A DNA stretch of 64,000 nt from an uncultured Planctomycetales bacterium (GTDB lineage Bacteria > 4484-113), in contig CAZKNJ010000009.1 in the NCBI GenBank assembly GCA_964554185.1, positions 5 through 64,004 on the forward strand, in the 5' to 3' direction. Positions 923 to 19,889 of the stretch are shown here, piece by piece (the stretch's first letter is position 1; each line of letters opens with the position of its first letter). The notes beneath the pieces are model-generated. The model made no database searches. It saw only the letters and a list, made by a program, of their open reading frames with translations, and was not told the DNA's origin. Both the position numbers and the translations under genes were made by a program.

Positions 923-952
923 CCACCTGGATTATAACACGAGATTCGCGGG

Positions 953-1650: not shown

Positions 1651-2280
1651 ATGTCGCTGCCGCGGAAGAAGTTCCAGCTCATCCCCCAACAGGGGGACAG
1701 CGAGCTTGACCGGACGGAGTTTGCGGTAGTTGACCTGGAGACTACCGGCGGCCAGCCCGACCAGGAGCGCATCATTGAGATCGCTTGCTTCGTCGCCCAG
1801 GGCGGCGTGGTCACCCGTGAGTTTCATACGCTGGTAAACCCGGACCGATCCATCCCGCCGTTCATCACGCGGCTGACAGGCATCTCCGAGGATATGGTTC
1901 ACAGCCATCCGCCTATTTCGGAAGTGCTGCCCGGCTTTCTACAGTTTCTGAACGGCACCGTGTTTGTGGCCCACCATGCGGACTTCGACGCGGGATTCGT
2001 GCGGGCCTCGCTGCTGCGCGAGCTGGGCAAGGAGCTGCCCAACGACGTGCTCTGCACGCGTAAGCTGGGGAAATACCTGCTGCCGTGGCTGCCCAGCCAC
2101 AGCCTCTCCACCATCGCGGACTTCTTCGGGATTGAAATAAAGAACCGGCACCGCGCCTTCGGCGACGCTTACGCGACCACGGTTATACTGAGTATTTACC
2201 TGAAGTACATGGCCTACCAGGGCATCCGCGAACTCGCACAGGTTCACGCGATTGAGCAGGGACGGCTGGCGCTCAGCTAG
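1651..2280 (+). CDS. DEDDh-family 3'-5' exonuclease (DNA polymerase III epsilon-like)
   Basis: Exo I motif VDLETTG. Exo II motif VAHHADFDAGF. Exo III motif HRAFGDAYAT. Confidence 0.8.
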   Translation: MSLPRKKFQLIPQQGDSELDRTEFAVVDLETTGGQPDQERIIEIACFVAQGGVVTREFHTLVNPDRSIPPFITRLTGISEDMVHSHPPISEVLPGFLQFLNGTVFVAHHADFDAGFVRASLLRELGKELPNDVLCTRKLGKYLLPWLPSHSLSTIADFFGIEIKNRHRAFGDAYATTVILSIYLKYMAYQGIRELAQVHAIEQGRLALS

Positions 2281-2708
2281 CCGCAAGCGGTGTCAAGCCC
2301 TTCCGCCAGGACCATCAGGCATCTTCCCTCAACCAGCACTTCCTCGTCGTCAGCCAGCCTGAGTTGTGCTTCCGCGCGGAAGAAACGCCCCCGGCGCTCC
2401 ACCAGCCGCGCTTCGCAAACCAACTCGCGCCCCACCGGCACCGGCTGACGGAAGCGGGTCTCCATCGTGGCGGTGACGACTATCTCGCCGCAAGTGCGCG
2501 TGACGAGGTTGTTCATCACATCGTCAAGCACCGTGCTCGATATGCCGCCGTGCAGGACTCCGGCGAAGCCCTGCAGATGCGGCCCGGGAGTGAACCGCGC
2601 CGTGACGGCGTCGCCCTCAACCGCGAACCGCAAGTGCAGGCCGAAGGGATTCTTCGTCCCGCAGGCAAAGCAGTAGTCGTTGTCCAGAAAAACCGGCGTG
2701 TCAGCCAT
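2277..2708 (-). CDS. PaaI/YbgC-type hotdog-fold thioesterase
   Basis: 143 aa. Contains the GVLHGG motif typical of PaaI-family thioesterases. It is the last gene of the TamB operon. Confidence 0.7.
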   Translation of the reverse strand: MADTPVFLDNDYCFACGTKNPFGLHLRFAVEGDAVTARFTPGPHLQGFAGVLHGGISSTVLDDVMNNLVTRTCGEIVVTATMETRFRQPVPVGRELVCEARLVERRGRFFRAEAQLRLADDEEVLVEGRCLMVLAEGLDTACG

Positions 2709-2718
2709 TCACACCACC

Positions 2719-5700
2719 TCAGAAGCGGAAACTGACGCCCACATTGGCCACCCACTCTTCCTGCACCTGGCCGCGCTGGCGCCATAGAATTTCACCAAAC
2801 GCCCGCCCTCCGTAACGCTCGTAAAGGTAGTACTTAGCGCCGTATTCCTCGCGCTGGTCTACTTCGGATAGGAAGGTTCGCAAGTAGTTAACGGTGAAGC
2901 CGGGGAAGAGCTCCTTCTCCACGTTCAGCAGGAACGGAGTGCCGGATTTGCCCGTTAGGTCGCTTGACAGGGCACGGAGCTCGAAACGCTTGAAGTCCAG
3001 GCTTTCTTCCAGAAAGCGCGAGAGGCGGGAGCCGGTGAAAGCCAGTGCCTCGCTGCCGATGAAGGTCTGCATCCCGCTGCGCGTCAGATCAAGGCCGGAG
3101 CCGCCGAGCAGGTAGGCGAGGAGGGTCTCGCGCGCGAGCGGCGGGTGGGAGTACATATCTATTTCGTCGAGGTTCTGCTCATCCATCAGCGCCTGCAACG
3201 GCATGTCGTGAAAGCGGAAGTAGATGGTCAGGTCTTCGCCGGTGGGCGCGAAAGGAAGCTCGCTGGGGAGAATCTCCACCGGCATATCGCCGCGCGAAGA
3301 TCGCAGCACACCCGGCAGCTCCACCGCGGCAGTGCCGAACAGGTGCGGTGAGAGGCCGTACTCGGGCTGCATTATTATCTTCGCGGGCTCATCAACCTCG
3401 GTCAGGCGCACGATGCGGTTGAGCACGAGCAGCGAGCCGCGCGTCACATCCAACCGCCCGGAAACCTGCGGCTGCTGCAGCGTTCCGGTGATGTGCACCG
3501 CCTCGGGGCTGTGGAGGGCGACTTCCATCATCAGCGGCCGGTACTTGATCCAGCATTCCTGGCGCACAGATAGCCTGAGGTCAACGTAGGCGTTGAGCGG
3601 GCCGGTTACCGGCGCGGCCGAGGCCAGGGTCGGCAGTTGCACCACAGCGCCGGAACGAACCGCGATATCGCCGGAGATAACGATCGGCTGCTCGCGGAAC
3701 TCCTTGTTGACCGAGACTGTGCCGTCCAGGCCACCCTTGAACAGACCCCTGATCTCCAGTAACTCCAGGCCGGTGAGATCAAGTTCCAGGCCCATTGCTT
3801 CTATCCCGCGAAAGCCGGGGGCAAACTGCACGCGCGAGATGTCCATCCGCGCGAGGTTGTTGCCGCCCTTTCCGTTGGTAGGACGGAGCACTGCGCCCTT
3901 GCCGGTGATAGTGCGCCCGTCAAAGTCAATGTCAGCGCTCAGACTCGCCAACGCAACCATGTCGCGGTAGCCGAGCCCGGACAAGTCGAGCTTGGCATTG
4001 CCGTAGACGAGCGGATCGGACAGCGTGCCTGCGACATCGAGTTCGCAGGTCAGTTTCCCCGCATACTTGACATCTTCCAAAGGGAACAGCGGCTGGGCGC
4101 CTCCCAGGGCGAAATCCTGCGCGCTGACATGCAGGTCAAACGCGTCACTCAGCCCCGGCACCGGCATTACGCCGTTCGCGTACAGCATGGAGCCGCTAGA
4201 GGTAATGGAGGCGTCCCGCAACTCCAGCGCCCCGGAGGCGAACCGTAACATACCGGACACGCTATCGGCCACGATGCCGCCGGCGCTGATCCCGCGCTCG
4301 TCCGCCGAATGAAACGATCCCTCCAGCGCCGGATGCCCCTGCTCATCGCTGGTGACCGCCACGATTAAGCCGATGCCGCCGGATAGCGGGCGGAAGGCCT
4401 CCGGCACCAACGGCTCGAGCATCTCGAGGTCAAGGTAGGGGATGTACAGGTCTATCATTGTGTCTTCCGGCTTCCAGCTCCAGAAACCGGAGGCGGTGGC
4501 GATGGTTTCTTCGTTGTAGGCCTGGAAGCTGTCCACGCGGATGCCGTCGGGCTGGATGTTGAAGGAAATCAGCGCCTCGTCAATGGGAGTGTTCAACACC
4601 GCCCCGTTTTCCAATGAGACCTTGCCCTGCACCACCGGCGTCTCCAGACTTCCCAGGCTCACCATCTCGCCGGTGAGGCCGCCCTTCAAGCCAAGCTTCG
4701 CCAGAGCCGGCGTGACCCGCGCCCAGGGCTCGACCGGGAAATGGTCCATCTGCAGATTCCAATCGCTGCTGCGCCCATTCGCCAATCGCCAGGAACCGTT
4801 GGTTTCCAGCGAGCCGTCGCCCAGGCGGATGCTGCCGCGCTTGACCGTGAGGCCGTTGCCGTTGTACTCCGCATCCACGATGAACTCGTGGAGTTCCTCA
4901 CCGCCGACGCTGCCGCTGGACTGGGCATAACTGCAGGCGACCACCGGAGCGGAGTACTTTCCGTGGGCGTTCACCGCCAAGAGCCCGTCGCCGGTGGCGG
5001 GCAGGCTGAGCTCGGGGTACAAGTGGTCAAGCGCACTCGCGAGCGAGAAATGGTCGTCGCCAACGCGCAGGCTGAATTCGTCTACGGCCAACCAGCCGCT
5101 AGCATTGAGCAGCTCTCCACCAATGCGGGCGTACGCTTTCTCCAGCACCATGTGTCCAGGCTCCAACGCATAGCCGGCTGACACTTCGTAGGCGGTAATC
5201 TGCCTGCCTGCCACCTCCGCTCCCACGCGATTGACAAACGCAGTGCCGTGCAAAAAAGGGTGGTGCATGCTCCCCGAAACAGTGCCGCTGGTGGTCACCG
5301 GATCGATGATTGGTAGGACGCCAAGCCACTTGTGGAGCGAGAGATCTTTGATCTCGTAGCCCAGCAACAGCTTGCTGCCGTCCACGCGCATTGAGCCCTG
5401 GGAGGAAACGGCAGCGGTAGCGTAGCGGCCGGCTAGAGCGAGCACAGCTTCCGTGCCAGCAGTTTTCGCCGCTAGTGATGCCCACAACGGCTCGTCGCCG
5501 ACAACGCCGGAAAGCGTGGCCTGCAGCGTGAAATCCTGCGGAACGCCGCCGCCGTAGGCGCGGAAGTACAAGCGCTCATCCCCGATCTCGGCCTTGCCCG
5601 ATGAACTTGCGCGAGCGCGCCAGCCGTGTTGAGTACGGGACGCCTTGAGGTCAGCAGATGCGACGACGCGGGAGGGAAGGCGCTCGCGTGGAAGAGCAAT

Positions 5701-7350
5701 GTCCGCCGGCCAGCGGGGCTGGAACACCACCTGCGGGGCCAGAATAGTGGCCGCGTCCAGGCTCAGGTCAAAGCTGACGCCAGGCGAGGAGACGGTGCCG
5801 TCGGTGAGCTCAATCAGCGCATGCTGCGTGCGCCCAACCACGCGCTTGCCGGCGACATCAACCTGTCCCTTGAGCGCAAGGTCGGCGCGCCTGATGCGGG
5901 AAATCGCGGGGTGCAGCGCTCTCAAGCTGCGGGGCAAGGCGGATGGCGCTGCTGTAATCTTAGCGGTTCCCTCCACCTTCGAGTCCGCAATGACCAGGTT
6001 GGCCGCGAGGAACTCGCGCCCGGATTGGGTTGCCGTGATGTCGGCATGCACCGTGCCGCCGGCGCGCCGCAGCCGGGCGGTCACGCCCTCGGCCAGCAGC
6101 ATTCCGTCGCGGCTGAGACCGGCAACGCTCATGTCCGCGGTAATATCGGACTTCTCCAGCTCAAAGGGCTCTCCCGCTTCCACCGTCATCTGCAAGCCTT
6201 CAGCGGAGACGCCCGCGACGCTGGTAACGAATGCCGCGATACCGGGCACGTTGAAGTTGGCGCGCAGACCTTTGCCGCCTGAGGTGTCCAGGCTGACGGC
6301 AAATGGCCCGCCGCCGGCCAGCCCGTCAACGGTCACTGCCGTTCCCCCGGAATCCATTGCACCAGCTGCCGAGCCGATCTCAATGCGCGAGGCTCCTGCC
6401 GGGAGGAGCACGATGTTGGACAGCTCCGCTGCGAACTCCTTCAGCTCGGGCTTGCCGTCGGAGGAGACGACCGCTTTCAGTTGATCAACCGTCGCTTCCG
6501 AAAGGTCCCATATCCCTTCGCCGGACGCGATGAAGGGGAGCGTATCCAGCTTCACTCCGCGCGCCGCCGCCTCCGCCCGGAAGGAAGCCTTGTCTGTCTG
6601 GCCGCTTAGCTTGAGCGAAAGGGCTACGGGGCTTTCGACTTGAACGACCCCGTCAAACGCGCGCTTCACCGGCCGCACCGTCAAATCCGCCGCGAAGGCG
6701 ACGCGAAGCGAATCTTGCAGCTCAACCAGCGGTTCGTGGAGCGCGCTGCGCAAGTCAGCGGCAAAACCCTCCGCCAGCACGACTTCGTTTGATTCAAGCC
6801 AGGCTGCGAGCTTGTTCCAGGCTGCCTCCCTAGTCTTGTTGAGCTTCTCATCAATGAGTCCGTTAATCTCATCCCTGGCCGCAGGCGCGAGCTTCAGTGT
6901 GATCGCGGAATCCCGCAGCCGGAGATTCAGTGTTTCCAGCTTGGTTTCTTTGGGCTCCGGCAAGCGCTCCAGCAAGTCGGAGAAGCTCCACTTGCCCTTC
7001 CCTTCATACTCGATGGAAGCCGAAAGTCCCTTGATGGTCACCGTGAGCGACTGCTTACCGGCGAGGTTGCGTAGCATGTCCAACCAGGAGGCGCCAATGG
7101 AAACCTCCTCCGCCGAGATGTAGTCTTCGCCTGTATCAGGATGCTGCAGGCGCGGATGAGATAGAGTGATGCTGCCGCGGTCAAGTTTGATCTCGTCAAA
7201 GGAGAGTTTACCGACGGACGTGTCGAAGCCCGTGGCGGCAAGGCGGCGCAGTAGCATCTGGCGGCCGACCGTCAGCAGCAGCACGAGCACAAGCACGATA
7301 ACAAGCGCGACCGTGCCGGCAACAGCCAGAGCTTTTCGCCATCTTCTCAC
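2719..7350 (-). CDS. tamB: TamB/AsmA-like translocation-and-assembly-module protein (DUF490 C-terminus), 1543 aa
   Basis: Single N-terminal TM anchor (LAVAGTVALVIVLVLVLLLTV). Very long beta-rich body. C-terminus ...YYLYERYGG...GVSFRF is typical of TamB/DUF490. Start is 2 nt after the mlaD stop. Confidence 0.75.
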   Translation of the reverse strand: MRRWRKALAVAGTVALVIVLVLVLLLTVGRQMLLRRLAATGFDTSVGKLSFDEIKLDRGSITLSHPRLQHPDTGEDYISAEEVSIGASWLDMLRNLAGKQSLTVTIKGLSASIEYEGKGKWSFSDLLERLPEPKETKLETLNLRLRDSAITLKLAPAARDEINGLIDEKLNKTREAAWNKLAAWLESNEVVLAEGFAADLRSALHEPLVELQDSLRVAFAADLTVRPVKRAFDGVVQVESPVALSLKLSGQTDKASFRAEAAARGVKLDTLPFIASGEGIWDLSEATVDQLKAVVSSDGKPELKEFAAELSNIVLLPAGASRIEIGSAAGAMDSGGTAVTVDGLAGGGPFAVSLDTSGGKGLRANFNVPGIAAFVTSVAGVSAEGLQMTVEAGEPFELEKSDITADMSVAGLSRDGMLLAEGVTARLRRAGGTVHADITATQSGREFLAANLVIADSKVEGTAKITAAPSALPRSLRALHPAISRIRRADLALKGQVDVAGKRVVGRTQHALIELTDGTVSSPGVSFDLSLDAATILAPQVVFQPRWPADIALPRERLPSRVVASADLKASRTQHGWRARASSSGKAEIGDERLYFRAYGGGVPQDFTLQATLSGVVGDEPLWASLAAKTAGTEAVLALAGRYATAAVSSQGSMRVDGSKLLLGYEIKDLSLHKWLGVLPIIDPVTTSGTVSGSMHHPFLHGTAFVNRVGAEVAGRQITAYEVSAGYALEPGHMVLEKAYARIGGELLNASGWLAVDEFSLRVGDDHFSLASALDHLYPELSLPATGDGLLAVNAHGKYSAPVVACSYAQSSGSVGGEELHEFIVDAEYNGNGLTVKRGSIRLGDGSLETNGSWRLANGRSSDWNLQMDHFPVEPWARVTPALAKLGLKGGLTGEMVSLGSLETPVVQGKVSLENGAVLNTPIDEALISFNIQPDGIRVDSFQAYNEETIATASGFWSWKPEDTMIDLYIPYLDLEMLEPLVPEAFRPLSGGIGLIVAVTSDEQGHPALEGSFHSADERGISAGGIVADSVSGMLRFASGALELRDASITSSGSMLYANGVMPVPGLSDAFDLHVSAQDFALGGAQPLFPLEDVKYAGKLTCELDVAGTLSDPLVYGNAKLDLSGLGYRDMVALASLSADIDFDGRTITGKGAVLRPTNGKGGNNLARMDISRVQFAPGFRGIEAMGLELDLTGLELLEIRGLFKGGLDGTVSVNKEFREQPIVISGDIAVRSGAVVQLPTLASAAPVTGPLNAYVDLRLSVRQECWIKYRPLMMEVALHSPEAVHITGTLQQPQVSGRLDVTRGSLLVLNRIVRLTEVDEPAKIIMQPEYGLSPHLFGTAAVELPGVLRSSRGDMPVEILPSELPFAPTGEDLTIYFRFHDMPLQALMDEQNLDEIDMYSHPPLARETLLAYLLGGSGLDLTRSGMQTFIGSEALAFTGSRLSRFLEESLDFKRFELRALSSDLTGKSGTPFLLNVEKELFPGFTVNYLRTFLSEVDQREEYGAKYYLYERYGGRAFGEILWRQRGQVQEEWVANVGVSFRF

Positions 7351-7351
7351 T

Positions 7352-8695
7352 TCAGAACGAGAGCTGTACCCCCGCGTTCACCTGGTTCTCATCGCCGATG
7401 TCTTCCACGCCAACGAGCATGTTGTAGCGGTCCGCTAGCGGGAAGGTCAGGTAGGAATTGAGCTTGGGGTTGTTGATGTCGTACAGGTCGCCGGTCAGCC
7501 CTAATCCCCCGCCCTGCGAGTAGTCAAAACCCAGGCCGAACTCCGAGCGGAAAATGCCGCCGCGGAACAGAAGCGAGTTACCCATGTACTTCCCGGCCTG
7601 CGCGGTGACGCCCACTTTCTCCGGCGTCTCGCTGCCGATATTCTCCACGCCGAGGTCATAGGCGCTGTCGCCCACCCGCAGGCGCGTCTTCACATCAACA
7701 TACGCATTGTCGCTGCGGTTCGTCTGGTGGACGCTTTCGTTGCGGATGTTCACTTTGCCCTTGAAGCCGATGGGGCCGATATTATCCATTTTCTCGTTTA
7801 CGCGCTCTAGCGTCCCGCGCATCGTCCGCAGTGTTTTCTCGGCCTCTTCCAGCGTGGACTTGGTCAAGGTAATGCTGTCCTTGAGGTCCTGTTTGACCTT
7901 GTCGTCGCCGCTGATGTCGCGAATGTCGCCGGAAATCTCCTTCATGTCGGCGAGCAGCACGTCAATGTCGCCGAGCAGGGAATCCATACGCGTGCCGATG
8001 TCCATCGACTCCACCGTGCCTCGCAACCCGCTGGTGAGCGCGAGCATGTCCTCGCTGAGCGCGTGCACATTGGTCATGGTGGAAGTCACCTTGCCCTCAT
8101 TCATAGCAATGAGCCGGTCGGTGCGCGTGAGCATCCTGTTGGCCACCTCAACCGTGTCGCTGAGCTGCACGGCCAAGTCGCTCATGATACCGCCCATCTT
8201 CTCTTCGCTCATGAAGCCTTCCACGACGTCCAGCAGCGTGTTGACTTTCACCAGCGCGAGGTTGGCGTTGCTTATCATATCGGTGAGGCCGGGGTCCGGC
8301 TGACCTTTGAAAACCTGGTCGGCCTGCGCGTCGCCCGCAAGCGGGTTGGGGTTGGGATTGTCGCGGATAGAAAGATACTTCTCCTCAATCAGCCCCTCGG
8401 ACATAATGTAGAACTTGGCGTCCGCCGGGAAGGTGATGCCGGGGAAGATGTTCACTTCCGCCCTCGCCACGCCCCGGTCAGGATCGAGCTTCACGCTGCT
8501 GACCCATCCGATGTCGGTGCCGGCGCGCTGGACAGAAGTGCCCTTCTTGATGCCGCGCGCGTTGTCAAACTCCACCTTCACGGAGTAGCCCGACTCGCGG
8601 TTGAGCTCCAGCACCGCGCGGTACGCGCCAACTGCCAGAATGATGCCGATGACTACAACCAGACCGACCTTGATCTGGTAAGTGATTCCCTTCAT
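7352..8695 (-). CDS. mlaD: MCE/MlaD-family protein with long C-terminal extension (447 aa)
   Basis: N-terminal TM, then an MCE domain (YSVKVEFDNARGIKKGTSVQRAGTDIGWVSSVKLDP...). About 250 extra residues are helical with heptad-like spacing and end in a Gly/aromatic-rich segment terminating ...GVQLSF. Confidence 0.75.
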   Translation of the reverse strand: MKGITYQIKVGLVVVIGIILAVGAYRAVLELNRESGYSVKVEFDNARGIKKGTSVQRAGTDIGWVSSVKLDPDRGVARAEVNIFPGITFPADAKFYIMSEGLIEEKYLSIRDNPNPNPLAGDAQADQVFKGQPDPGLTDMISNANLALVKVNTLLDVVEGFMSEEKMGGIMSDLAVQLSDTVEVANRMLTRTDRLIAMNEGKVTSTMTNVHALSEDMLALTSGLRGTVESMDIGTRMDSLLGDIDVLLADMKEISGDIRDISGDDKVKQDLKDSITLTKSTLEEAEKTLRTMRGTLERVNEKMDNIGPIGFKGKVNIRNESVHQTNRSDNAYVDVKTRLRVGDSAYDLGVENIGSETPEKVGVTAQAGKYMGNSLLFRGGIFRSEFGLGFDYSQGGGLGLTGDLYDINNPKLNSYLTFPLADRYNMLVGVEDIGDENQVNAGVQLSF

Positions 8696-9495: not shown

Positions 9496-9497
9496 AA

Positions 9498-10244: not shown

Positions 10245-10291
10245 GCGGGTAGTATAGGCGTTGCGCGTGGGTTAGTAAAGCACTTTGGAGC

Positions 10292-13200
10292 CTATAGCGG
10301 GCCGCGCTGCCAGATAATCAAACGGTCGGCACTCCCAGGGCCGCTGGCGTAGATCAGCAGTGGATAATCCGCGGACTCGTTCGGTAAAAGCACGATGGGC
10401 GCGTTGAAATGCATGTACAGCGGAACGCTTTCCGCAACCACTTCGGTGTCCCAGTCCCCCGCGGGCTGGCGCCAGCCGAAGTATACATCCGCCCAGTGGA
10501 ACGCGTTAACATCGTCCGGCGGGTCGGTCTGGCGTGAGAAGGACGCTATGGCCGGGCGCCCATCCAGCAGGGCAATGTCAACATTGTGGTAGTAATTCGC
10601 GGCTTTATCATCCGGATCAGGCAGATCCACGGGGAAAGCGTTCTCAACCGTAAACGCCGTACCGTCATAAGTGGCATATCGGATAAACGCAATTGGCGGA
10701 TTAGTGCTGGCTTTCAAGTCCAAGTAAGCCAGGTACAGCGTTTGAGAAGCAAACAGCGTAGTTAGATTGCGACCGGTGTTGCTGTCTCCCAGGTTTTCCC
10801 CCGCATCCAGCAGTTCCGTGCTCCAAGTCCCTTCCGCATATTCGGCCAGCCACAGCTCACCTTTACTAGGGAAAGTGCTGGCTTCATAATGGTCTAGCGC
10901 TTTTTCATAAAGCACCATCTGCTCTTCGCCAGAACCGAAGTCTGCGATGAGGGCTTTCAGGTGCATGGACTTCTCGGTGTCGGGATCGGGCTCCTCGAAG
11001 CTTTGCCAACTTGTAGTGTCGCCCCGTCTTGCTCTCAAATCGAGCGTCTCGTCCGGAGGGAAAGAGGTTACCAGGTCGTTGCAGGCTTGCATACGGATAT
11101 CGGTGCCGAAGGCGGTGGAGATCACCGGCTGGGTCGGCAGGGAGATGGTGGCGAGCGTGTCAATGCTCCAGGTTTCCGGCGCGGTGCGGGTAGCCGTTCG
11201 GTAGTAGTCCCAGCCGGAGAAGGAGATGACCGGCTCGCCGGAAAAGCCATGGGACAGTTCTAACTGGCGGGGAAGTCCAAAGCCCGGCGGCGGGGAGGCC
11301 AGAATGGGGCCCTCAAACAGAGTGACTGCTCCATCCCATCGCATGTAGTAGACATTGCCGGTGTGGTCGGCAGGGTGTTCGGAGCCGAGGGCGAATTCCA
11401 CGATCCCTGCGCTCTGGGCCGCGTCGAAGTAGGTGATGCTCCAAATCTCGGGCAGGTCAACGCCCACCACCAGTTCGTCCAGCACATTCCACGGGGGGGT
11501 TGCGCCGAGGTAGTTCTCATTGGCATCCATGTTGGGGTCGTCGTCCAGGCGCCGGTCGGATACACGAACTGCGAAGTAGTAGCGCTCCCCGTCCTCCAAG
11601 CCGTCTATCGTGTAGGAATGCGTGGACGCCCCGGTGTCGGCAATGTCCTTCACCTGGGGGTCGTCCCAATCAAACGCCGGAGTTGTCCCGTAGCAGATAT
11701 GGTAATACACCTTGCGCCCGTAGAAATCGTCGGTGGCGTAATCCCAGTTAACCGTGGCTTCGCCGAAGCCGGTGGAGACGCTGCGGATGCCCTCCTCGCC
11801 CACCCAAACCGGCGCGGTCATGTCCGGATTCATCTGGAGCATGGTTAGCACGGAGTTGGAGTTGGTGACGTACACTCGGTCGGCAATGAGCGCGGCGCTG
11901 GAGTGAATCGGCGCGGCCAGGTCCACCGTTTGCTTGATGGCGCCGTAGAAATCCAACACATAGAAGTTACCGTTCTGCGAGCCGGCAAACACGCGCGTGT
12001 CGGAGGCAACCGGTGAAGCATAGATCCGGCCGATGTCCGCCGTCTGCCACAGCAGCGCGCCCGTCTGCAAGTCGTATGCAGCTATCTTTCCGGAATCGAT
12101 GGGCGGCATAGTGCTGAAGCGCCCTTGCCCGACAACCACCATCTCCACGTCGCCGCGAGAAACCACCAGAGGGGAGCCTTCCACCCCGAAATCGGTCACG
12201 TAGGCAGCAACCGTTGCAAGGTCGGAGAGGCGCAGCGCATAGGCCGCGTTGTCGCCTCCCTCCACGAAGTCGGTGCCGACCAGCAATACTGCAGGGGATT
12301 CGCGCGGATAGAGGACGGGTGAGGAGGTGCTGATGGTGCCCAGGTCGGCGGGGGAACGCAGGATTTCGTCGCCGGTCTCGCGGTCAAGCTTGTGGATGTA
12401 GCCGTTGCGGCTGGCCACGTAAATGTAAACACCGTCAGTGACCGGTGCGCAGTTTATCGCGCCGGAGTTCAGGCTGACCGACCACACCTCGCTTCCGTCA
12501 ATGATGTCAAACGCGTGGACGTTCCCATCCAGGTCACCGGCGTACGCCACGCCCTCCACGACCAGCGGCGAGGACTTGACCGGCAGGCCGCTCGCGAGGC
12601 CGTACTGACCACGGCTGGTGCCGTCTTCGCGGTCAAGAATGAAGTAGGCGCCGGCTCCGCCCACGGCGAGGTAGTCGCCATAGAGCGAGATGGTGGAATC
12701 GGAAAACTGAGTCGTGACCTTCTGGGAGTAGTGGGTGGAGTCCGGGCTTATTTGGCCGAAGCAAGCAAGGTACCCGTCCTGAGAAGCGATATACACGCGG
12801 CCGTCGTCCAGCACCGGGCAAGAAGCGTTGTGCGTGCCGGTTACGCGGTACTCGCGCTGCCACTGGATGGACAGCGGCTCGCGCAGACTGCTTCCCTCCA
12901 GCCGTCCGGTATTCTGCTCGTCTTTGCGGAAGGACGGCCAGGGGAAGGGGCTGGGCGTGTAGGGCTGCGGAGTGGCGGTCAGCACCACGATGTTGGGCGG
13001 AGATTCTTCCAGATCGTCCTCGTCATAGATGCGGACAAGGAAGGCGTAGGTGGTTCCATTGGCGAGGCTCGTGACCGTGTGGCTGAAAGGCGGCAAGCCG
13101 GTGAAGGAGCTGCGATCCAGCCGAATGCTCTGTGCCGTAGCCGTGTCAACGGTCAGGCCTTCCTCGTAATACAGGGTGTAATAGATGTCGTCGCCGTCCG

Positions 13201-14416
13201 GATCGGTAGCGTCGCCGAATGTGAGCGTTACCTGCCCTTTAGCGGGAGTGGCGGAGATGAGGCCGACCGCACCCATCCAGATTGGCGGGCGGTTCTCGCC
13301 GGAGCCGGTGAGGTCGGCTTTACGGATATTGGAGAAATGCACGGCACCATAGTCGTCGGCGACCTGCGAGAAGGCGCGCACAGCGAATGCATAGGTGCCG
13401 GCCGGCATCTCGCGGCCGTAGTAGTAGTTGATGCGAGTAGGGGGCGCTATCGGCGGGTCGCCGATGTAGAAGCGCGTGCGCTTGACCGAGGGGCGCGGCT
13501 CCGAGGGGGTCTCGTTATCGTCAAAGGGCGGGACGCTGAAGAAGTCGTCTTCCGAAACTTCAGCCGCCAAAGAGGGAATCGTGAGCGCGAACACGTCGTA
13601 TCCCGTAATAGAGCGCCCGAAGTTCCGCGCCAGCGGCGTGATGTCAGCAATCTGCACTTGCCCGTTGTGGTCGCCATCCACGATTTCAGCATCCGGGTGC
13701 TCGCTGACAAGCTGCTGGAAGTGCACCGCTACCGGCGTTATATCGGCGATGTTCACTCTCCCGCTGTTGTCGTAGTCGCCGGTGGTGACTTCGGTCCAAG
13801 ATAGCCCCACCTGCTGGCTGTCAACGTCAACTTCCAGGTCGGACACGCGTTGAAGTTCGCCCTCAAAGGGCACGCTGGCGGACTTGATCGCCTGCGGGCG
13901 TTTCCCGCCGCTGGTGAAGACTACCGGCCCCAGGGACTCGCCCTGACCGAAAGCGAGTGTCAGCCTGAACTCCAGCCCCACCTCGCCGGCGGCGTCGGCC
14001 ACGCCCACCGGCAGCACGCCATCCAGGCGTCCCGGCAGCACCACGCCGATGACCTCGCTCGCGGAGTCCAGCTTCAGATCAACCAGCTGCGAATCCGCCG
14101 GAGGCCGGACGTAGAGATAGGCGGACTCGTGCGTGTCCGAGGAGAACGAGAGCTCCAGGCTGCCCTGTGTTGCGCAAAGCTCAAGGCGCGACAGCATAGC
14201 CGGAGCATCATGCAGCTCCGCGTCCAGGCACTGAACGGTGAAGCCTCCGGCGGTGAGCGAGCCAGCTTCGGCGAGCCTGGCGGCGTAGAACTGGTTCACG
14301 GTGGGCTTTACCGGCTCCGGCAGCGCTCCACCGATATGGGCGGACTTGCCGCATGCGGCTGCAAGCAGCAGCGCTGCCAGCGCAAGCAAAATGCTGCGAA
14401 ACTTATACATCATCAT
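10292..14416 (-). CDS. giant secreted lipoprotein (1374 aa) with PQQ-type beta-propeller repeats, Fn3-like modules and a dockerin-like Ca-binding repeat pair
   Basis: Lipobox LLAAAC-G. Repeated motifs of the type GxxYALD/VWxxxL (YIASQDGYLACFG, GNVHAFDIIDGSEVWSVSL, YVASRNGYIHKLD, GKIAAYDLQTGALLWQ, GNFYVLD). Two dockerin-like loops DYDNSGRVNIADITPVAVHF and DGDHNGQVQIADITPLARNF about 25 aa apart. Confidence 0.65.
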   Translation of the reverse strand: MMMYKFRSILLALAALLLAAACGKSAHIGGALPEPVKPTVNQFYAARLAEAGSLTAGGFTVQCLDAELHDAPAMLSRLELCATQGSLELSFSSDTHESAYLYVRPPADSQLVDLKLDSASEVIGVVLPGRLDGVLPVGVADAAGEVGLEFRLTLAFGQGESLGPVVFTSGGKRPQAIKSASVPFEGELQRVSDLEVDVDSQQVGLSWTEVTTGDYDNSGRVNIADITPVAVHFQQLVSEHPDAEIVDGDHNGQVQIADITPLARNFGRSITGYDVFALTIPSLAAEVSEDDFFSVPPFDDNETPSEPRPSVKRTRFYIGDPPIAPPTRINYYYGREMPAGTYAFAVRAFSQVADDYGAVHFSNIRKADLTGSGENRPPIWMGAVGLISATPAKGQVTLTFGDATDPDGDDIYYTLYYEEGLTVDTATAQSIRLDRSSFTGLPPFSHTVTSLANGTTYAFLVRIYDEDDLEESPPNIVVLTATPQPYTPSPFPWPSFRKDEQNTGRLEGSSLREPLSIQWQREYRVTGTHNASCPVLDDGRVYIASQDGYLACFGQISPDSTHYSQKVTTQFSDSTISLYGDYLAVGGAGAYFILDREDGTSRGQYGLASGLPVKSSPLVVEGVAYAGDLDGNVHAFDIIDGSEVWSVSLNSGAINCAPVTDGVYIYVASRNGYIHKLDRETGDEILRSPADLGTISTSSPVLYPRESPAVLLVGTDFVEGGDNAAYALRLSDLATVAAYVTDFGVEGSPLVVSRGDVEMVVVGQGRFSTMPPIDSGKIAAYDLQTGALLWQTADIGRIYASPVASDTRVFAGSQNGNFYVLDFYGAIKQTVDLAAPIHSSAALIADRVYVTNSNSVLTMLQMNPDMTAPVWVGEEGIRSVSTGFGEATVNWDYATDDFYGRKVYYHICYGTTPAFDWDDPQVKDIADTGASTHSYTIDGLEDGERYYFAVRVSDRRLDDDPNMDANENYLGATPPWNVLDELVVGVDLPEIWSITYFDAAQSAGIVEFALGSEHPADHTGNVYYMRWDGAVTLFEGPILASPPPGFGLPRQLELSHGFSGEPVISFSGWDYYRTATRTAPETWSIDTLATISLPTQPVISTAFGTDIRMQACNDLVTSFPPDETLDLRARRGDTTSWQSFEEPDPDTEKSMHLKALIADFGSGEEQMVLYEKALDHYEASTFPSKGELWLAEYAEGTWSTELLDAGENLGDSNTGRNLTTLFASQTLYLAYLDLKASTNPPIAFIRYATYDGTAFTVENAFPVDLPDPDDKAANYYHNVDIALLDGRPAIASFSRQTDPPDDVNAFHWADVYFGWRQPAGDWDTEVVAESVPLYMHFNAPIVLLPNESADYPLLIYASGPGSADRLIIWQRGPL

Positions 14417-15155
14417 AGTCCGCGAGATGAACGCTGTTATCCTCCAGCCAGGCCTTCAGGCCGCTGGAGCAGAGGGCCGTCAGCTCCTGTTCTCGCTCCT
14501 CATAATACTCCGTGTGCTCCCTCGGAAGCCCGGCAGTCAGCCCGGGGTGGCACATCACTTCCATAATGCCATCCTTTCCGCGAACGGAATTGAGCAGCGA
14601 CAGCAGCTGTACTTCCCCTATGTTATTCTTCCCAAAAAAACCGGATATCAGCATTGCCGGGTGCCGAACGCCTTTCCAGTCCAGATAGGCGGACATTGCG
14701 GGCGAAAGCGTGCGCATTGCGAGCCCGCGCTCCAAAGCAATGTCAGCAGCCACATCCAGCACATTCACGAACGAATGGATGTTCTGATGGCTGTCCAGGT
14801 GCGTAATCGCGATGCCGGCATCCGCTAGCCTTCCCACCTGGGCTTCAAATTCGGCGCGGATTACACGCTCCCGCAGCAGCGGCGCACCTTCGGGGAAGTA
14901 CATCTTGGCACGGGAGAACTTGCCGCCCTCAAGGTACCGGGGGTTAAGACTGGTGAGCGGCTTGCCCTTAGTCAGGTTCAGGTGCACACCAACCGACACC
15001 TGCGACAGCGCTGCCAGGGCGGAAAGCGATTCGTCATCAACCATGTTTGCCAGCACGGTGGCGGAGCGCACGACGCCTTGCTCAATCGCCTGGATAATGC
15101 CCCGGGAGATGGTTGGGTGAGAGCCAAAGTCGTCAGCATTGAATACCAGCTTCAT
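14403..15155 (-). CDS. YdjC/ChbG-family carbohydrate deacetylase
   Basis: N-terminal NADDFG motif. Conserved HLDSHQ (the YdjC His-x-D-x-H metal site). Overlaps the lipoprotein start by 14 nt. Confidence 0.7.
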   Translation of the reverse strand: MKLVFNADDFGSHPTISRGIIQAIEQGVVRSATVLANMVDDESLSALAALSQVSVGVHLNLTKGKPLTSLNPRYLEGGKFSRAKMYFPEGAPLLRERVIRAEFEAQVGRLADAGIAITHLDSHQNIHSFVNVLDVAADIALERGLAMRTLSPAMSAYLDWKGVRHPAMLISGFFGKNNIGEVQLLSLLNSVRGKDGIMEVMCHPGLTAGLPREHTEYYEEREQELTALCSSGLKAWLEDNSVHLADYDDV

Positions 15156-17560
15156 GGCTTGCCGTTACCCCGCATCTTCTGCTCAACCAGGCGCCGCACC
15201 AGCTCGACGAACTGCCTCGCCCAGCGGGCATCGTCCACCCCCGGCTGCCGGGGCGAGAAAGCCGAATCCTCGTAAAGAGAGATGAAGCGGCGCAGGTCGC
15301 CGCCGTATTCGCCGAGGAAACCCACAACCCGGTCGAGGTATTCCTTGTGGGTGTCGCTGGGGTAACGGAGAAGCGAGGAGGCCGCGAGGGCATCAGATAG
15401 CGCGATGTACTCGCGCACCAGCTCGTTTTCGGGAACGAAGAAAGACTTCCGGCGGAAGCCGCGCCGCAGCCGCCAGACGGCAACGCCCAGCAGAATAGCG
15501 GTTCCAAGCACCAAGACTACCAGGTACCAGCGCGTTGCAAGGGCCGGGCCAACGAGATTGTAGAGGCCGACGAAGAAGCTCACAATCGTCTCGCGGGCGC
15601 CTGCCGGGTCGATGACGAACAGGTTCTCCATGAAGCCCACAGTGTTGCTTCCCATCTCGCGTATGCGGCTCAGGCTGAAGAGGTCGCTGGAAGCGGGCGT
15701 GGGGTCAAACATCACCCAGCCCAGGCCGTCGAAGTACACCTCCACCCAGGCGTGGGCGTTGCGGTCGCGGTAGACATACTTGTTGCCGATGACCGAGTAG
15801 CTGCCGGGGGCATAGCCGGTTACCACGCGGGCGGGGATATTCTGCGTACGGCAGAGCACCGCCATGGCTGACGCGAACTGCTGGCAGAAACCCGCCCGGG
15901 AGGTGAATAGCAAGTAGGAAGTGGCTTCCTGGTACTCGTTCAGCTCGGGGAACTCCAGCGTGTAGGCGAACCTATCAGTGTCCTTGAGGTAGCTGTAGAT
16001 CGCCAGCACCTTGTCGTAGGGCGTAGTGGCTCCCGCGACAACGCGGTCGGCTTCGCGGAACACCTCTTCCGGCACCGACAACACATTCACCCCGGCGCCA
16101 ACTTCACTCTGGTAGCGGGCGATTTTGGAGGCAATCGGCAGGCCGGTGTAGCGATCCACTATCACGGGAGGAGGCGCACCGAGGCTTTCCTTCATTTGCG
16201 CACGGTGCACATCCGGCGCGAGAATGGTCGCACGGTAGGTGAACCGGCCGGGGTGGCGCGGAAGCTGGGAATGGGGCACGGAGAAGTCGTCCAGCAGCGG
16301 CGGAACGTTCACCGGCTCATCATCGCGCGTGCGAATCATGGACACGCTCTCCAGCTTGACCGGCTGGTAGGAGCTGAAAAACACCGGAGGATGGTCCTTG
16401 AGCAGGGTCACTTCCTGGGTGAAGATCCTGTAGTTTAGATCGGATATTTCGTTCTGGGAATACAGGTTGTCTTTGTCAATGAGGATGTCTTTCCTCTTCA
16501 GCTCGTTCTCGGCGTAATGGCGGCTGGGGAAATCAATCACCGGCAGGGCGTAAGACGGAGTGGCTTCGTAGCGCCGCGTGCGCATGGGCACGGTGCGCAT
16601 GTTGAGTTCCGTCCGTTTCGAGCGCTTCCACGACTGGCCGGTGTACACGTCAAAGGCAGTCCCGCGGACATAGCCGTTACGGGCACTGCGGATTTCCAGC
16701 GCTGGGTCGTCGCTGAGAAACAGCGATTGCGGGCCGAAGATGGAGCTGCTGCCAGACAGGTCAAAGGTGCCGGAGAAGCCGCTGGTGGCCAGATCGCCGG
16801 CGGAGAGGTTCAGCGATTCGTCCGCGCGGCGCTGAAGGTCCTCCAGGCTCTCATCCAGCACCGCGGAGCTCGGCAGGAAGAAGGACGGGCGGTTCATGTC
16901 GGTGTAGTGCGGGACGAGCACATACACAATCACCGACACCGCGACGATGCCGACGACCATCTTAATAATGAGTCCGCCGACCGCCAAGGTGAACTGGGCC
17001 GCCTGCTCCGGCCGGAGCTTTTCGTCACGCCCGACGTGAGCGATTCCCTCTTGCAGATCAATCGTGTTGATGAAGTAGAAACTCGCGGTAGTGAAGATTA
17101 GAAACAGCGGGAAGTAGACCACAAGCAGAAGGTCGTAACTCGTGGTGGCGGAGAATAGGACGAACACCACGCCAATCAGCAGAAGCTGGCGGTGGATGGA
17201 AGTGGTGAAAGCGATGAATGCTAGCAAGCCCAGCAGCACGCCGAGCAGCATCCCCAAGTAGTTACCAATGAGGAACGGGTCGTCCGCCATCAGCCGGAAA
17301 TAGTGGATGACTGCGAGAATGCCGATTACGTCCACTGCAATGATGGTGAACCGGTGGTAGTTCTCACCGATGAAGTAGCTGTAGAAGTAGCCCGCGATGG
17401 CCACGAGCATGAGGATAAGCTTCAGGTCGGGGCGGTCAAGTCCGAGATCCAGGACCTGTAGGCCGACGATGGACGCCAGGCAGGTGCTGATGAAGAGGAG
17501 TAGGCGCTCGCGCCGTCCGCTGGCGTCAAGCTGCAATAAGAGCGAGCGCCCCAGGCTCAT
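15152..17560 (-). CDS. tgpA: transglutaminase-like protein TgpA (DUF3488 membrane domain + transglutaminase core + DUF4129-like tail)
   Basis: Multiple N-terminal TMs. Cys-His-Asp core (GFCQQFASAMAVLCR ... HAWVEVYFDGLGWVMFDPT). C-terminal TM plus a YPSDTHKEY...YEDSAFSP tail. 4-nt overlaps with the DUF58 and YdjC genes. Confidence 0.8.
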   Translation of the reverse strand: MSLGRSLLLQLDASGRRERLLLFISTCLASIVGLQVLDLGLDRPDLKLILMLVAIAGYFYSYFIGENYHRFTIIAVDVIGILAVIHYFRLMADDPFLIGNYLGMLLGVLLGLLAFIAFTTSIHRQLLLIGVVFVLFSATTSYDLLLVVYFPLFLIFTTASFYFINTIDLQEGIAHVGRDEKLRPEQAAQFTLAVGGLIIKMVVGIVAVSVIVYVLVPHYTDMNRPSFFLPSSAVLDESLEDLQRRADESLNLSAGDLATSGFSGTFDLSGSSSIFGPQSLFLSDDPALEIRSARNGYVRGTAFDVYTGQSWKRSKRTELNMRTVPMRTRRYEATPSYALPVIDFPSRHYAENELKRKDILIDKDNLYSQNEISDLNYRIFTQEVTLLKDHPPVFFSSYQPVKLESVSMIRTRDDEPVNVPPLLDDFSVPHSQLPRHPGRFTYRATILAPDVHRAQMKESLGAPPPVIVDRYTGLPIASKIARYQSEVGAGVNVLSVPEEVFREADRVVAGATTPYDKVLAIYSYLKDTDRFAYTLEFPELNEYQEATSYLLFTSRAGFCQQFASAMAVLCRTQNIPARVVTGYAPGSYSVIGNKYVYRDRNAHAWVEVYFDGLGWVMFDPTPASSDLFSLSRIREMGSNTVGFMENLFVIDPAGARETIVSFFVGLYNLVGPALATRWYLVVLVLGTAILLGVAVWRLRRGFRRKSFFVPENELVREYIALSDALAASSLLRYPSDTHKEYLDRVVGFLGEYGGDLRRFISLYEDSAFSPRQPGVDDARWARQFVELVRRLVEQKMRGNGKP

Positions 17561-18798
17561 CGCACGAATCCCACCTTCTCGACAAAGGTCTCCAGCTGCC
17601 GCGACAGGTCGTCGCCGTACGCCAGCTCAAAGATGAGGAAGTTCTGGCCGAAGCTTACCCGAGAGCGCGGAGTTCGGCGCGCCATCCCTTTGCGGAAGCT
17701 GTCCACATCAAAGGTTATCACCGAAAGCAGCCGGTAGTGCAGTCGGAGGTTTGCTAAAAACTCCGCTTCACCTCCGCCCAAGTGGGGAATGAAGACTATC
17801 AGGTCGGAGGACTCCGGAAGGTAGCGCAGGATTTCGGTGGAGTGGCCTTTCAGGTCAAGGTTCTCACCTGGCGTGATTTCTGCCAGCAACAGCGATATCT
17901 CCTGAAAGAGGCTGCTACCCATACCGGAGCAATGACGCTCGGCCGCACCGCTCAGCTCTAAAAAGGAGAAGTAGTAGTTGGAACGGCTGGTCTCCCGCGC
18001 CAGCGTGGAGATCAGCGTGATGGAGTACTCCAGCGGATTGTGCTCTTCGCTGCGCCCCACTGCTGAACGGTCGTCATTGACCAGTAGCACGCTCATCGTA
18101 GAGGCGACGTTGCGCTCAAACTGCTTGGTTATGAGCTTGCCCATGCGGGCAGTGCTGGCCCAGTGGACTTTGCGCAGCGGGTCGCCCGGCTGGTACTCGG
18201 TTACGCCCAGGAACTCGGTGGACTCCCCGCTGAACGGGACGGTCGCCAGCTCATCCTTGGGCACCATTGAGGAGCTGTTGAGGTAGTTCACGCGTGTGTC
18301 CAGCGGGCGCGGAAACACGGTAAGCGGAGTCATCACGCTCATTGCGCGCACGTGGCGGAAGAAGCCGAGTGGGTCGCCGGAGTAGAACATGAAGGGGCCA
18401 ATCTCAAACTTGCCGCGCCGGGCAGGCAGCGCCTCATACCTGACCGCTGCGCTGGAACCGGGCGCCAGGCTGAGAAGAGCGATCTCGCGGTGTTGCTCCC
18501 CCTCACGGGCGGCGGGGAAGTAGTCGTAACCCACCAGCGAGAAGCGGGCGGTGCGCAGCTTGTTGGTTATCACCAGGTCAACACCGAGGGGGAAGCCCTT
18601 CATACAGGTGGCGGGATGCTCGCGGTGGACCGAGAGCCCCCGGGTGCTGAGCAGCGACCAGAGGAAGAGCCCGGTGTTTAGCGTAACGAAGAGGACAAGG
18701 GTGTACACCAGCAGGTGGTTGCGGAAGATGAGGACAAGCAGCAGGGTGAACGCGGTAAGCGCCAGAGATATCCGCGAGAGTGGAGTTAAACGATACAA
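17557..18798 (-). CDS. DUF58-family protein (vWA-like, MoxR partner), paralog 1
   Basis: Two N-terminal TMs. Conserved DUF58 core ...GDPLRKVHWASTARMGKLITKQFE... Confidence 0.8.
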   Translation of the reverse strand: MYRLTPLSRISLALTAFTLLLVLIFRNHLLVYTLVLFVTLNTGLFLWSLLSTRGLSVHREHPATCMKGFPLGVDLVITNKLRTARFSLVGYDYFPAAREGEQHREIALLSLAPGSSAAVRYEALPARRGKFEIGPFMFYSGDPLGFFRHVRAMSVMTPLTVFPRPLDTRVNYLNSSSMVPKDELATVPFSGESTEFLGVTEYQPGDPLRKVHWASTARMGKLITKQFERNVASTMSVLLVNDDRSAVGRSEEHNPLEYSITLISTLARETSRSNYYFSFLELSGAAERHCSGMGSSLFQEISLLLAEITPGENLDLKGHSTEILRYLPESSDLIVFIPHLGGGEAEFLANLRLHYRLLSVITFDVDSFRKGMARRTPRSRVSFGQNFLIFELAYGDDLSRQLETFVEKVGFVR

Positions 18799-18818
18799 CC
18801 TCGGTCACCCGCGATGGA

Positions 18819-19841
18819 CTACTGCACCGGAACCGGCACTTTCTTGAGGACGCTTTCCACCACCACCGACGCTTTCACCCCCGCCAGCTGCGCGGAGGGC
18901 AACATCAGCAGCCGGTGGCTCAGCACCAGCGGCGCCATCAGCTTGACGTCGTCGGGAGTGACGTAGTCGCGCCCTTCAATCAGCGCCCAGGCCTGCGCTA
19001 CGCGCATCATGCCGAGACTGCCGCGGATGGAAGCGCCTACCAGCACATCCGGATGGCTGCGCGTCTCCGTGCTCAGCCGGACGATATACTCGCGCATTGC
19101 CGGCTTCAGAAACACCTTGCGCGCGAGCTTCTGGAATTCGGCGAGCTCGTCCAGGTCAATCACGCTGTCAATCTCGCCGATAGGATGTTCCTCGCGCTGC
19201 GCCTCCAGTATTTCCTCTTCGACCGCGGCACCTGGATAGCCGATGCCCAGGCGCACGAGGAAGCGGTCAAGCTGGGCCTCGGGCAGATCATAGGTTCCCT
19301 GGTGCTCTATGGGATTCTGGGTGGCGACCACGAAGAAGGGAACCGGCAGCGGATGCGACATGCTGCCCACCGTGACCTGGCGCTCTTCCATCGCCTCCAG
19401 CAGTGCGGACTGGGTGCGTGGGGAAGTGCGGTTTATCTCGTCGGCGAGCATTATGTTGGTGAACACCGGGCCGGGATTGAAGTCGAACTCGCCGGTCTTC
19501 TGGTTGAAGACATTGCTGCCGGTGACATCCGCCGGGAGCAGGTCGGGAGTGAACTGGATGCGCGTGAACCTGGCGCTGATGGAGCGAGCCAGTGCGCGGG
19601 CGAGCATAGTCTTGCCCACGCCCGGCACGTCCTCCAGCAGCACGTGACCGTCCGCCAGCATCGCGGCGAGCACCTGCCGGATGACCTTGTCTTTGCCGAG
19701 AATGACCCGTCCCACGTTGCCCGTTACCAGGGCAATCCGGTTGGCCGCCTGCATCGCGGCCTCCGGCGTCAGGGCCGTCCTTTCGGCGACCATCTTTTCA
19801 GTTTTGGCGTCCCTCATCAGCCGTAGTTCCGATGCGGGCAA
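18819..19841 (-). CDS. moxR: MoxR-family AAA+ ATPase
   Basis: Walker A GVGKTMLARALA. Walker B and sensor LADEINRTSPRTQSALLEAMEERQVTV. Layout is diagnostic of the MoxR/RavA subfamily. Confidence 0.9.
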   Translation of the reverse strand: MPASELRLMRDAKTEKMVAERTALTPEAAMQAANRIALVTGNVGRVILGKDKVIRQVLAAMLADGHVLLEDVPGVGKTMLARALARSISARFTRIQFTPDLLPADVTGSNVFNQKTGEFDFNPGPVFTNIMLADEINRTSPRTQSALLEAMEERQVTVGSMSHPLPVPFFVVATQNPIEHQGTYDLPEAQLDRFLVRLGIGYPGAAVEEEILEAQREEHPIGEIDSVIDLDELAEFQKLARKVFLKPAMREYIVRLSTETRSHPDVLVGASIRGSLGMMRVAQAWALIEGRDYVTPDDVKLMAPLVLSHRLLMLPSAQLAGVKASVVVESVLKKVPVPVQ

Positions 19842-19873
19842 TTATAGCAAAGGAACGCTCGCTCCCCGCGCGG

Positions 19874-19882
19874 TGGTATAAT
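19874..19882 (+). promoter_or_regulatory. extended -10 element (TGgTATAAT) 7 nt upstream of the ATG at 19890; leaderless
   Basis: gcggTGgTATAATccgcgccATG. Confidence 0.45.
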
Positions 19883-19889
19883 CCGCGCC

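Follow-up and report, generated by a model that had tools for sequence, protein, structure and literature searches.

Probable tandem arrangement of a MoxR-DUF58-TgpA operon and a MlaEFD-TamB operon in an uncultured bacterial lineage

We analyzed a stretch of 64,000 nucleotides (nt) from an uncultured Planctomycetales bacterium (contig CAZKNJ010000009.1 of assembly GCA_964554185.1, positions 5 to 64,004 of the forward strand; hereafter the window), in which ten consecutive minus-strand open reading frames (ORFs) run from position 19841 down to 2277 in the order moxR, DUF58, tgpA, ydjC, lipoprotein gene, mlaE, mlaF, mlaD, tamB, and hotdog thioesterase gene. A sequence-only reading of the window had seen in this array what looked like a single transcription unit and the best candidate for an undescribed system, suggesting a MoxR/TgpA module dedicated to a lipid-transport bridge. 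The ORF table and searches against Pfam and NCBIfam bear out the same-strand run, at the coordinates given by that reading, and the families to which its genes had been assigned. We favor, with a probability of about 0.7, a different view of the array: two envelope operons in tandem, each of an already-known kind, and not one fused machine. Unit A (moxR-DUF58-tgpA-ydjC-lipoprotein, 19849-10292) would be an enlarged MoxR(MRP)-DUF58-TgpA module, and unit B (mlaE-mlaF-long mlaD-tamB-thioesterase, 10279-2277) would be of the “ancestral” MlaEFD-TamB kind with an elongated MlaD. The units appear separable, with loose co-regulation possible and a dedicated link between them unsupported.

The main evidence is a promoter predicted exactly where the two units meet. 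Between the lipoprotein gene and mlaE, the 47-nt gap at 10245-10291 includes the motif TTTACT-17 nt-TATACT (P_mlaE). It ends 6 nt short of the mlaE start codon and occurs nowhere else in the window, where 0.04 occurrences are expected. All 18 loci of the clade have this pattern exactly once, in each case 6-14 nt ahead of the mlaE start, and it is missing from all six outgroup loci. In alignments of the different genomes, neither hexamer changes, nor does the distance between them, while the spacer and the flanks vary freely; the gaps themselves measure 47-160 nt and differ in GC content. The motif is unchanged also in L013, L014, and L016, despite gaps of 110-160 nt that cannot be aligned. A second predicted promoter, P_moxR, carries the extended -10 box TGCTATAAT upstream of moxR, and TGNTATAAT is kept there in every related locus that extends that far. 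On the coding strand of the array, each genome shows promoter-like matches at two places only, ahead of moxR and ahead of mlaE. Spacing within the units is tight (overlaps, or gaps of at most 20 nt), and the 47-nt gap between them is the only one of its size. At the level of prediction, a single transcription unit is therefore not supported. Because P_mlaE lies so close to the start codon, it would imply an mlaE mRNA that is leaderless or has a very short leader.

The second line of evidence comes from loci in which the MlaEFD genes stand without the MoxR module. In “Planctomycetales bacterium 4484_113” (L024), whose MlaE is 71% identical, a divergent gyrA(-) is followed by mlaE-mlaF-mlaD-tamB, preceded by the same P_mlaE. 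The MoxR, DUF58, TgpA, YdjC, and lipoprotein genes are absent from the ~4.8 kb upstream of mlaE on this 11.4-kb contig. Similarly, a MoxR module was found in none of seven outgroup contexts (MlaE 50-57% identical) within 3-10 kb upstream. One of these contains mlaEFD-tamB (L022), one mlaEFD and probably tamB (L021, where the gene after mlaEFD is truncated at 806+ codons), four mlaEFD alone, and one mlaE alone. These contexts speak against a necessary link between the two modules. In a neighbor-joining tree built from concatenated MlaE, MlaF, and MlaD, in which the deep-node bootstraps were left unused as artefactually low through re-rooting, L021 and L022 form the sister group and L024 branches within the clade or at its base. 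This would make mlaEFD-tamB the older element, next to which the MoxR unit came to lie later, in one lineage.

The juxtaposition itself is real and not confined to this genome. One species carries the exact MlaD on many metagenome contigs; scanning genomes with MlaE gave five metagenome-assembled genomes (MAGs) labeled “Planctomycetales bacterium” or “bacterium”, and a metagenome scan with the TgpA alignment and two peptide patterns yielded at least one further locus (L012). All ten genes are in order in L008-L012. The most distant members reached, L013, L014, and L016, also keep the ten-gene order, with MlaD 47-50%, TamB ~27%, and TgpA 42-45% identical to the proteins of the window. As the same order recurs in at least nine other genomes, the array is no chance run of ORFs, and the neighborhood search proposed by the sequence-only reading came out in its favor on this point. 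We also found no paper describing MoxR/TgpA adjacent to Mla/TamB, and the sequence-only reading knew of none. The genes that flank the array are nonetheless equally syntenic in the relatives: yraN upstream, and RNase_T, HhH-GPD, a hypothetical gene, urocanase, and CorC downstream, with gyrA-DHQ-orf150-SLH in addition in L012. Since these unrelated flanks are just as well kept, the conserved adjacency is weak evidence for a functional connection.

Several observations weigh against two independent operons. Both P_mlaE and P_moxR are sequence predictions. In the window, the stretch from the lipoprotein gene to mlaE lacks a canonical hairpin with a T-run; a terminator scan of L014 gave nothing in the corresponding gap, and the gaps of L013, L014, and L016 fold into hairpins without a T-run. 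Termination between the units, which we had considered, was dropped for this reason: hairpins are present and T-runs absent, in the window and in the distant relatives. Of the two kinds of internal signal that, according to the sequence-only reading, would split the array, a conserved promoter is thus predicted and a terminator was not found, so that a ten-gene read-through transcript is possible. A structured RNA was also dropped as an explanation, as no Rfam family matched in window positions 1-23000. With the exception of 4484_113, every clade locus extending upstream of mlaE retains the adjacency, at TamB identities of ~27-37%, and selection for co-expression could have kept it across such a deep divergence. 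The absence of unit A in 4484_113 and the outgroups applies to the upstream stretches covered, and unit A could be encoded elsewhere in these genomes. Functional cross-talk is plausible, as both units are envelope-related and the lipoprotein has a BamB-like fold. Finally, the mechanism proposed for unit A below draws on family knowledge only.

These points are what a reading of the array as one operon and one system can draw on, in which MoxR/DUF58/TgpA serves the MlaD/TamB bridges and the motif before mlaE is a secondary or boosting promoter, or a regulator site. The genes share a strand, no terminator was detected in gaps of 47-160 nt, the order persists in the nine or more other genomes down to 47% MlaD identity, and both halves, including a lipoprotein with a BamB-like propeller, point to the envelope. 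Internal promoters are, moreover, common inside genuine operons. We still regard this reading as unlikely, and leave it some room mainly because of the missing terminator and the read-through that it would permit. A complete and conserved -35/-10 promoter sits precisely at the module boundary, 4484_113 has unit B with its promoter and lacks unit A in the ~4.8 kb upstream, the seven outgroup contexts, among them the one or two with tamB, all lack a MoxR module within the 3-10 kb upstream, and the adjacency carries little weight given the flanks. The MlaEFD-TamB system of Veillonella parvula is likewise described without a MoxR module (PMC10665443). A further scenario, to which we would give rather little credit, combines both views: unit A, with its lipoprotein and YdjC, was recruited as an assembly or quality-control device for MlaD/TamB bridges in an OmpM-bearing lineage, read-through from P_moxR providing co-expression and P_mlaE the basal level. 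If this were true, the functionally unsolved MoxR-DUF58-TgpA module would gain its first concrete client, the MlaD/TamB lipid bridges.

The features of the array and of its surroundings are collected in Table 1. The recomputed junctions agree with those reported by the sequence-only reading except at mlaE/mlaF, where a 2-nt gap replaces the 4-nt overlap; an overlap is impossible there, because the listed ORF already starts at its first possible start codon.

Table 1 Genes and predicted signals of the array and its flanks. Positions are those of the window; junctions give the distance in nt to the preceding gene of the array, negative values being overlaps; aa, amino acids.
Feature	Position	Strand	Junction	Product or description	Evidence
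P_moxR	19841..19849	-		predicted promoter of unit A, extended -10 box	read in sequence
moxR	18819..19817	-		MRP-type MoxR AAA+ ATPase	AAA_3 218.5 bits, AAA_lid_2 78.6 bits (Pfam)
DUF58 gene	17557..18798	-	+20	DUF58 protein, 413 aa	PF01882 32.8 bits (cut-off 23.4)
tgpA	15152..17560	-	-4	polytopic membrane transglutaminase-like protein, 802 aa	
ydjC	14403..15155	-	-4	YdjC-family carbohydrate deacetylase, 250 aa	PF04794 161.6 bits
lipoprotein gene	10292..14416	-	-14	lipoprotein, 1374 aa; last gene of unit A	
P_mlaE	10251..10279	-		predicted promoter of unit B, sigma-70-like	in the 47-nt gap
mlaE	9498..10244	-	+47	ABC permease, 248 aa, GTG start	PF02405 215.9 bits
mlaF	8692..9495	-	+2	MlaF-like ABC ATPase, 267 aa	ABC_tran 110.7 bits
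mlaD	7352..8695	-	-4	elongated MlaD, 447 aa, one MCE domain	PF02470 58 bits
tamB	2719..7350	-	+1	TamB/AsmA-like protein, 1543 aa	TamB C-terminal domain 46.4 bits
thioesterase gene	2277..2708	-	+10	cytoplasmic thioesterase of the hotdog fold (4HBT), 143 aa; closes unit B	PF03061 47.2 bits
yraN	19945-20433	+		UPF0102; divergent neighbor upstream of the array	
terminator	20461-20488			strong bidirectional terminator, 12-bp, GC-rich, shared by the SLH gene and convergent yraN	
SLH gene	20513-22231	-		SLH-domain protein, 572 aa, N-terminal SLH and signal peptide; candidate OmpM-type outer-membrane tether	
RNase_T gene	1651-2280	+		convergent neighbor downstream of the array	

The array has clear ends on both sides, with yraN diverging from it upstream and the RNase_T gene converging on it downstream. 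At 19873-19883, the minus strand reads GATTATACCAC. Its reverse complement, GTGGTATAATC, is a plus-strand extended -10 box that probably serves as promoter for the divergent yraN; GATTATACCAC is kept in all relatives ~50 nt upstream of the moxR -10 box. A third match to TGNTATAAT in the window, at ~931-939 (-), lies just upstream of a 152-aa ORF (464-922), and the equivalent place in L007 has one as well. The other window genes that we examined are housekeeping genes (gyrA, dnaE, ruvB, gmk, and coaBC), and the array is therefore not part of an outer-membrane (OM) biogenesis supercluster of the Negativicute kind.

The family assignments of the unit A genes hold. The longest moxR ORF extends to a TTG at 19841, which overlaps the TATAAT -10 box, and the in-frame ATG at 19817 gives a protein of 332 aa, the length called in three distant orthologs; the ATG is for these reasons probably the true start. 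The Walker motifs of MoxR are intact (P-loop PGVGKT, Walker B LADE). The DUF58 protein has two N-terminal transmembrane (TM) helices (TM-like segments at residues 4-52) followed by a vWA-like body. TgpA contains the TgpA_N, Transglut_core (90.2 bits), and DUF4129 domains of Pfam, with an invariant Cys559/His603/Asp619 catalytic triad, and its best solved relative is the TgpA of Pseudomonas aeruginosa (PDB 6g49). In L011 (MAG CAVVLL01, 2720-5080), the tgpA ortholog carries one in-frame stop at about codon 79 in an otherwise conserved ORF, for which a sequencing error, a pseudogene, or recoding could account. YdjC lacks a signal peptide; of the NCBIfam models it is closest to ChbG (160.7 bits, against 81 bits for HpnK), yet both scores are under the cut-off, so that it falls short of the ChbG equivalog.

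Unit A has two published counterparts. In P. aeruginosa, PA2875-PA2874-tgpA (MoxR-DUF58-TgpA) are co-transcribed and tgpA is essential, with a role that is envelope-related but unsolved (PMC3507681). The window has the same three families, in the same order and tightly coupled, and its TgpA shares the N-terminal TM helices, the Cys-His-Asp transglutaminase core, and the C-terminal TM segment. It differs in two further, translationally coupled genes, those for the YdjC deacetylase and a clade-specific propeller lipoprotein, and in a DUF58 protein whose metal ion-dependent adhesion site (MIDAS) position varies among orthologs and is not conserved. The second counterpart is the bifidobacterial PFNA cluster, pkb2-fn3-MoxR-DUF58-transglutaminase (PMC8430577, PMC6803598), which also places MoxR, DUF58, and transglutaminase genes beside that of a large surface or exported FN3 protein. 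Here, however, Pfam detects no Ser/Thr kinase domain in the array, the FN3 protein is a propeller lipoprotein whose gene follows tgpA and ydjC and does not precede the triad, and the host is diderm. Elsewhere, MRP-type MoxR operons affect envelope integrity: one in Rhizobium is needed for membrane or envelope integrity, according to a passage of PMC3893208 that cites the original work, and this counts both as a precedent for unit A as a known module and among the points in favor of a single system.

The last gene of unit A encodes the lipoprotein. Its N-terminus, MMMYKFRSILLALAALLLAAAC/GKS, reads as a signal peptide with the lipobox LLAAAC/G, and Pfam detects a PQQ/BamB-like propeller (PQQ_2, 76.7 bits) and fn3. 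An AlphaFold2 (AF2) model of residues 175-1374 has a mean predicted local distance difference test (pLDDT) score of 50 and is confident only at 384-474, 514-864, and 878-954, where it places, in order, an Ig/fn3-like domain, an eight-bladed propeller (514-864), and an fn3 domain; residues ~175-380 and ~955-1374 are modeled too poorly to be interpreted, and we assign no function to them. The best natural Foldseek matches are BamB proteins (TM-score 0.72-0.84, 15-17% identity). We considered that the protein could be the BamB of this lineage and rejected it, as the equivalog models failed by a wide distance (TIGR03300, 67.5 bits for a cut-off of 285.2; PRK11138, 43.8 bits for a cut-off of 423). 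The resemblance, that of a lipoprotein with an eight-bladed PQQ-like β-propeller, is at the level of the fold, and at such low identity the protein differs from BamB in being ~3.5 times larger, in its Ig/fn3 domains and extra C-terminal region, and in the position of its gene in a MoxR operon. It is also the most plastic component of the array. Its size ranges from 779 to 1385 aa in the clade; distant orthologs of 779-889 aa share only residues ~165-865 with the 1374-aa form, and those of L013, L014, and L016 are 38-40% identical. The C-terminal ~420 residues (~955-1374; window 10292-11550) are present only in the subclade of the window, have no match in Pfam or NCBIfam, and give a low-confidence all-β model. 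A search for homologs returned four relatives over the full length, without the orthologs at 38-40% identity; this number reflects the word-index limit of the search more than genuine rarity.

The position and fold of the lipoprotein raise the question of whether the boundary should be drawn elsewhere, with the lipoprotein (perhaps together with YdjC) belonging functionally to lipid transport and OM assembly, for instance as an outer-membrane partner to TamB/BamA or the long MlaD, and only moxR-DUF58-tgpA as an independent module. Its gene is directly upstream of mlaE, it is an exported eight-bladed propeller lipoprotein whose best natural structural matches are BamB, and Grasekamp et al. speculated that accessory proteins may be needed for an elongated MlaD (PMC10665443). 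We find this partition very unlikely. The 14-nt overlap of the lipoprotein gene with ydjC, and the 4-nt overlap of ydjC with tgpA, couple it to unit A; the conserved promoter lies downstream of it; it is missing next to mlaEFD-tamB in L024 as well as L022, and also from the stretch upstream of mlaE in L021; the BamB equivalog failed; and the PFNA cluster already offers an example of an FN3 protein encoded alongside MoxR-DUF58-transglutaminase. As for a MoxR-vWA-β-propeller “ternary” conflict or defense system (Kaur et al. 2020), unrelated to envelope biogenesis, unit A does have vWA-like and β-propeller proteins and its MoxR also passes PF20030 (bpMoxR, 42.9 bits for a cut-off of 27), but we rejected it and give it next to no credence, as AAA_3 scores far higher (218 bits), the propeller is of the PQQ/BamB type and in an exported lipoprotein rather than the cytoplasm, PADLOC gives only a trivial P-loop match, and the region is a stable, syntenic one of housekeeping genes.

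In unit B, the GTG start of mlaE is kept in position as ATG in the relatives. The ABC ATPase scores 160 bits against the MlaF model (PRK11831), under the cut-off of 441, and its assignment as MlaF rests mainly on gene position. For MlaD, an AF2 monomer model places a TM helix at residues 6-30, the MCE domain at 37-133, helices at 138-305 with low confidence (pLDDT ~30), and ten C-terminal strands at 309-446 (pLDDT ~60-73); this monomer model gives moderate support to a C-terminal β-barrel. Precomputed annotations assign the newer Pfam families PF27164 (“Aq_493_lipo”) and, in outgroups, PF28544 (“Helical_needle”) to the long MlaD proteins (C-terminus of MlaD in the window; L018, L021, and L022). 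TamB has an N-terminal membrane anchor (TM-like segment at residues 4-37), and its N-terminal region scores 32.2 bits against DUF748, under the cut-off of 50. The best solved relatives of the thioesterase are THEM4 and THEM5, which are long-chain acyl-CoA thioesterases, and its gene follows tamB wherever a clade contig reaches that far (L001, L002, L005-L011, and L013-L016). None of the ten array proteins matches MlaA (PF04333), MlaC (PF05494), or STAS in Pfam and NCBIfam.

The closest described system is that of V. parvula and other diderm Terrabacteria, an mlaEFD(-tolC)-tamB operon with an elongated MlaD and without MlaA, MlaB, and MlaC, for which antagonistic roles, retrograde phospholipid transport by Mla and anterograde transport by TamB, have been proposed (Grasekamp et al. 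2023, PMC10665443). Unit B has the same mlaE-mlaF-mlaD order, and no MlaA, MlaB, or MlaC was detected among the ten array proteins. Its MlaD is in the same size range (~420-450 aa) and has the TM anchor and single MCE domain, and the monomer model, of moderate confidence, follows the published layout with a long helical region and a C-terminal β domain of about ten strands. The tamB gene is directly downstream of mlaD, as in the clade members and in the outgroup L022. By homology, unit B may have a role in phospholipid trafficking and OM lipid asymmetry. The differences are the lack of a tolC between mlaD and tamB, the THEM4/5-like hotdog thioesterase gene after tamB, the housekeeping neighbors in place of a large OM-biogenesis cluster, and a host that is not a Negativicute. 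In L022 (12896-19038), mlaEFD is followed by a gene for a TamB of 1778 aa and then by that of an LmeA-family (PF11209) lipid-binding protein, in the position taken here by the thioesterase; different lipid-related accessory genes seem to have been appended after tamB in different lineages. Both units are assigned to known kinds, and the variations on them are modest (the MoxR triad is extended by two genes, and tamB is followed by that of a thioesterase).

The host belongs to an uncultured lineage of uncertain placement. The labels of the related MAGs conflict (Planctomycetales, Riflebacteria, or just “bacterium”), and one member of the MlaD cluster is named “Candidatus Riflebacteria bacterium RBG_13_59_9”; the diderm Firmicutes, among which the sequence-only reading had proposed to search, do not appear among these labels, and that framing has no support. 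We take 4484_113 to be the genome that gave its name to a separate candidate phylum in GTDB. OmpM-type SLH tethers have been reported for diderm Terrabacteria, Riflebacteria included, and the SLH protein encoded next to yraN suggests, from its predicted domains, a Terrabacteria-style diderm envelope.

The two-operon reading allows a tentative model of how the units work. Unit A would be transcribed from the extended -10 promoter upstream of moxR. The cytoplasmic MoxR, together with the membrane-anchored vWA-like DUF58 protein, would remodel or activate the polytopic TgpA at the inner membrane, and the periplasmic Cys-His-Asp transglutaminase-like domain of TgpA would modify an envelope target. 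The likeliest periplasmic partner or substrate of TgpA would be the BamB-like propeller lipoprotein, and the cytoplasmic YdjC may supply or trim a GlcNAc-type (N-acetylglucosamine) envelope precursor. Unit B would be transcribed from its own conserved sigma-70-type promoter. MlaEFD, in the retrograde direction, and TamB, in the anterograde direction, would balance phospholipid traffic between both membranes, with the elongated MlaD probably spanning the envelope. The thioesterase would act on cytoplasmic acyl-CoA as a lineage-specific addition to unit B. Read-through from P_moxR may add to the expression of mla/tamB. The two units would have become neighbors in one uncultured lineage and stayed so within a generally syntenic region.

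From a biological perspective, the evidence points to an adjacency that is a lineage-specific neighborhood and not a fused system. The chief effect of the result is to take away an appealing idea with weak foundations: nobody should point to the “fusion” as support for MoxR/TgpA modules servicing lipid-transport bridges. The result also adds another uncultured lineage to those with the MlaEFD-TamB arrangement and an elongated MlaD, and the thioesterase after tamB, or LmeA in the sister group, hints at a recurrent attachment of lipid-handling accessory genes to tamB. For the MoxR family, it defines a five-gene MoxR-DUF58-TgpA-YdjC-lipoprotein variant, in which the lipoprotein is a concrete candidate client of TgpA. 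Finally, the phylogenetic footprint of two predicted promoters, one of them leaderless or near-leaderless, may aid operon annotation in a lineage that has no cultured member.

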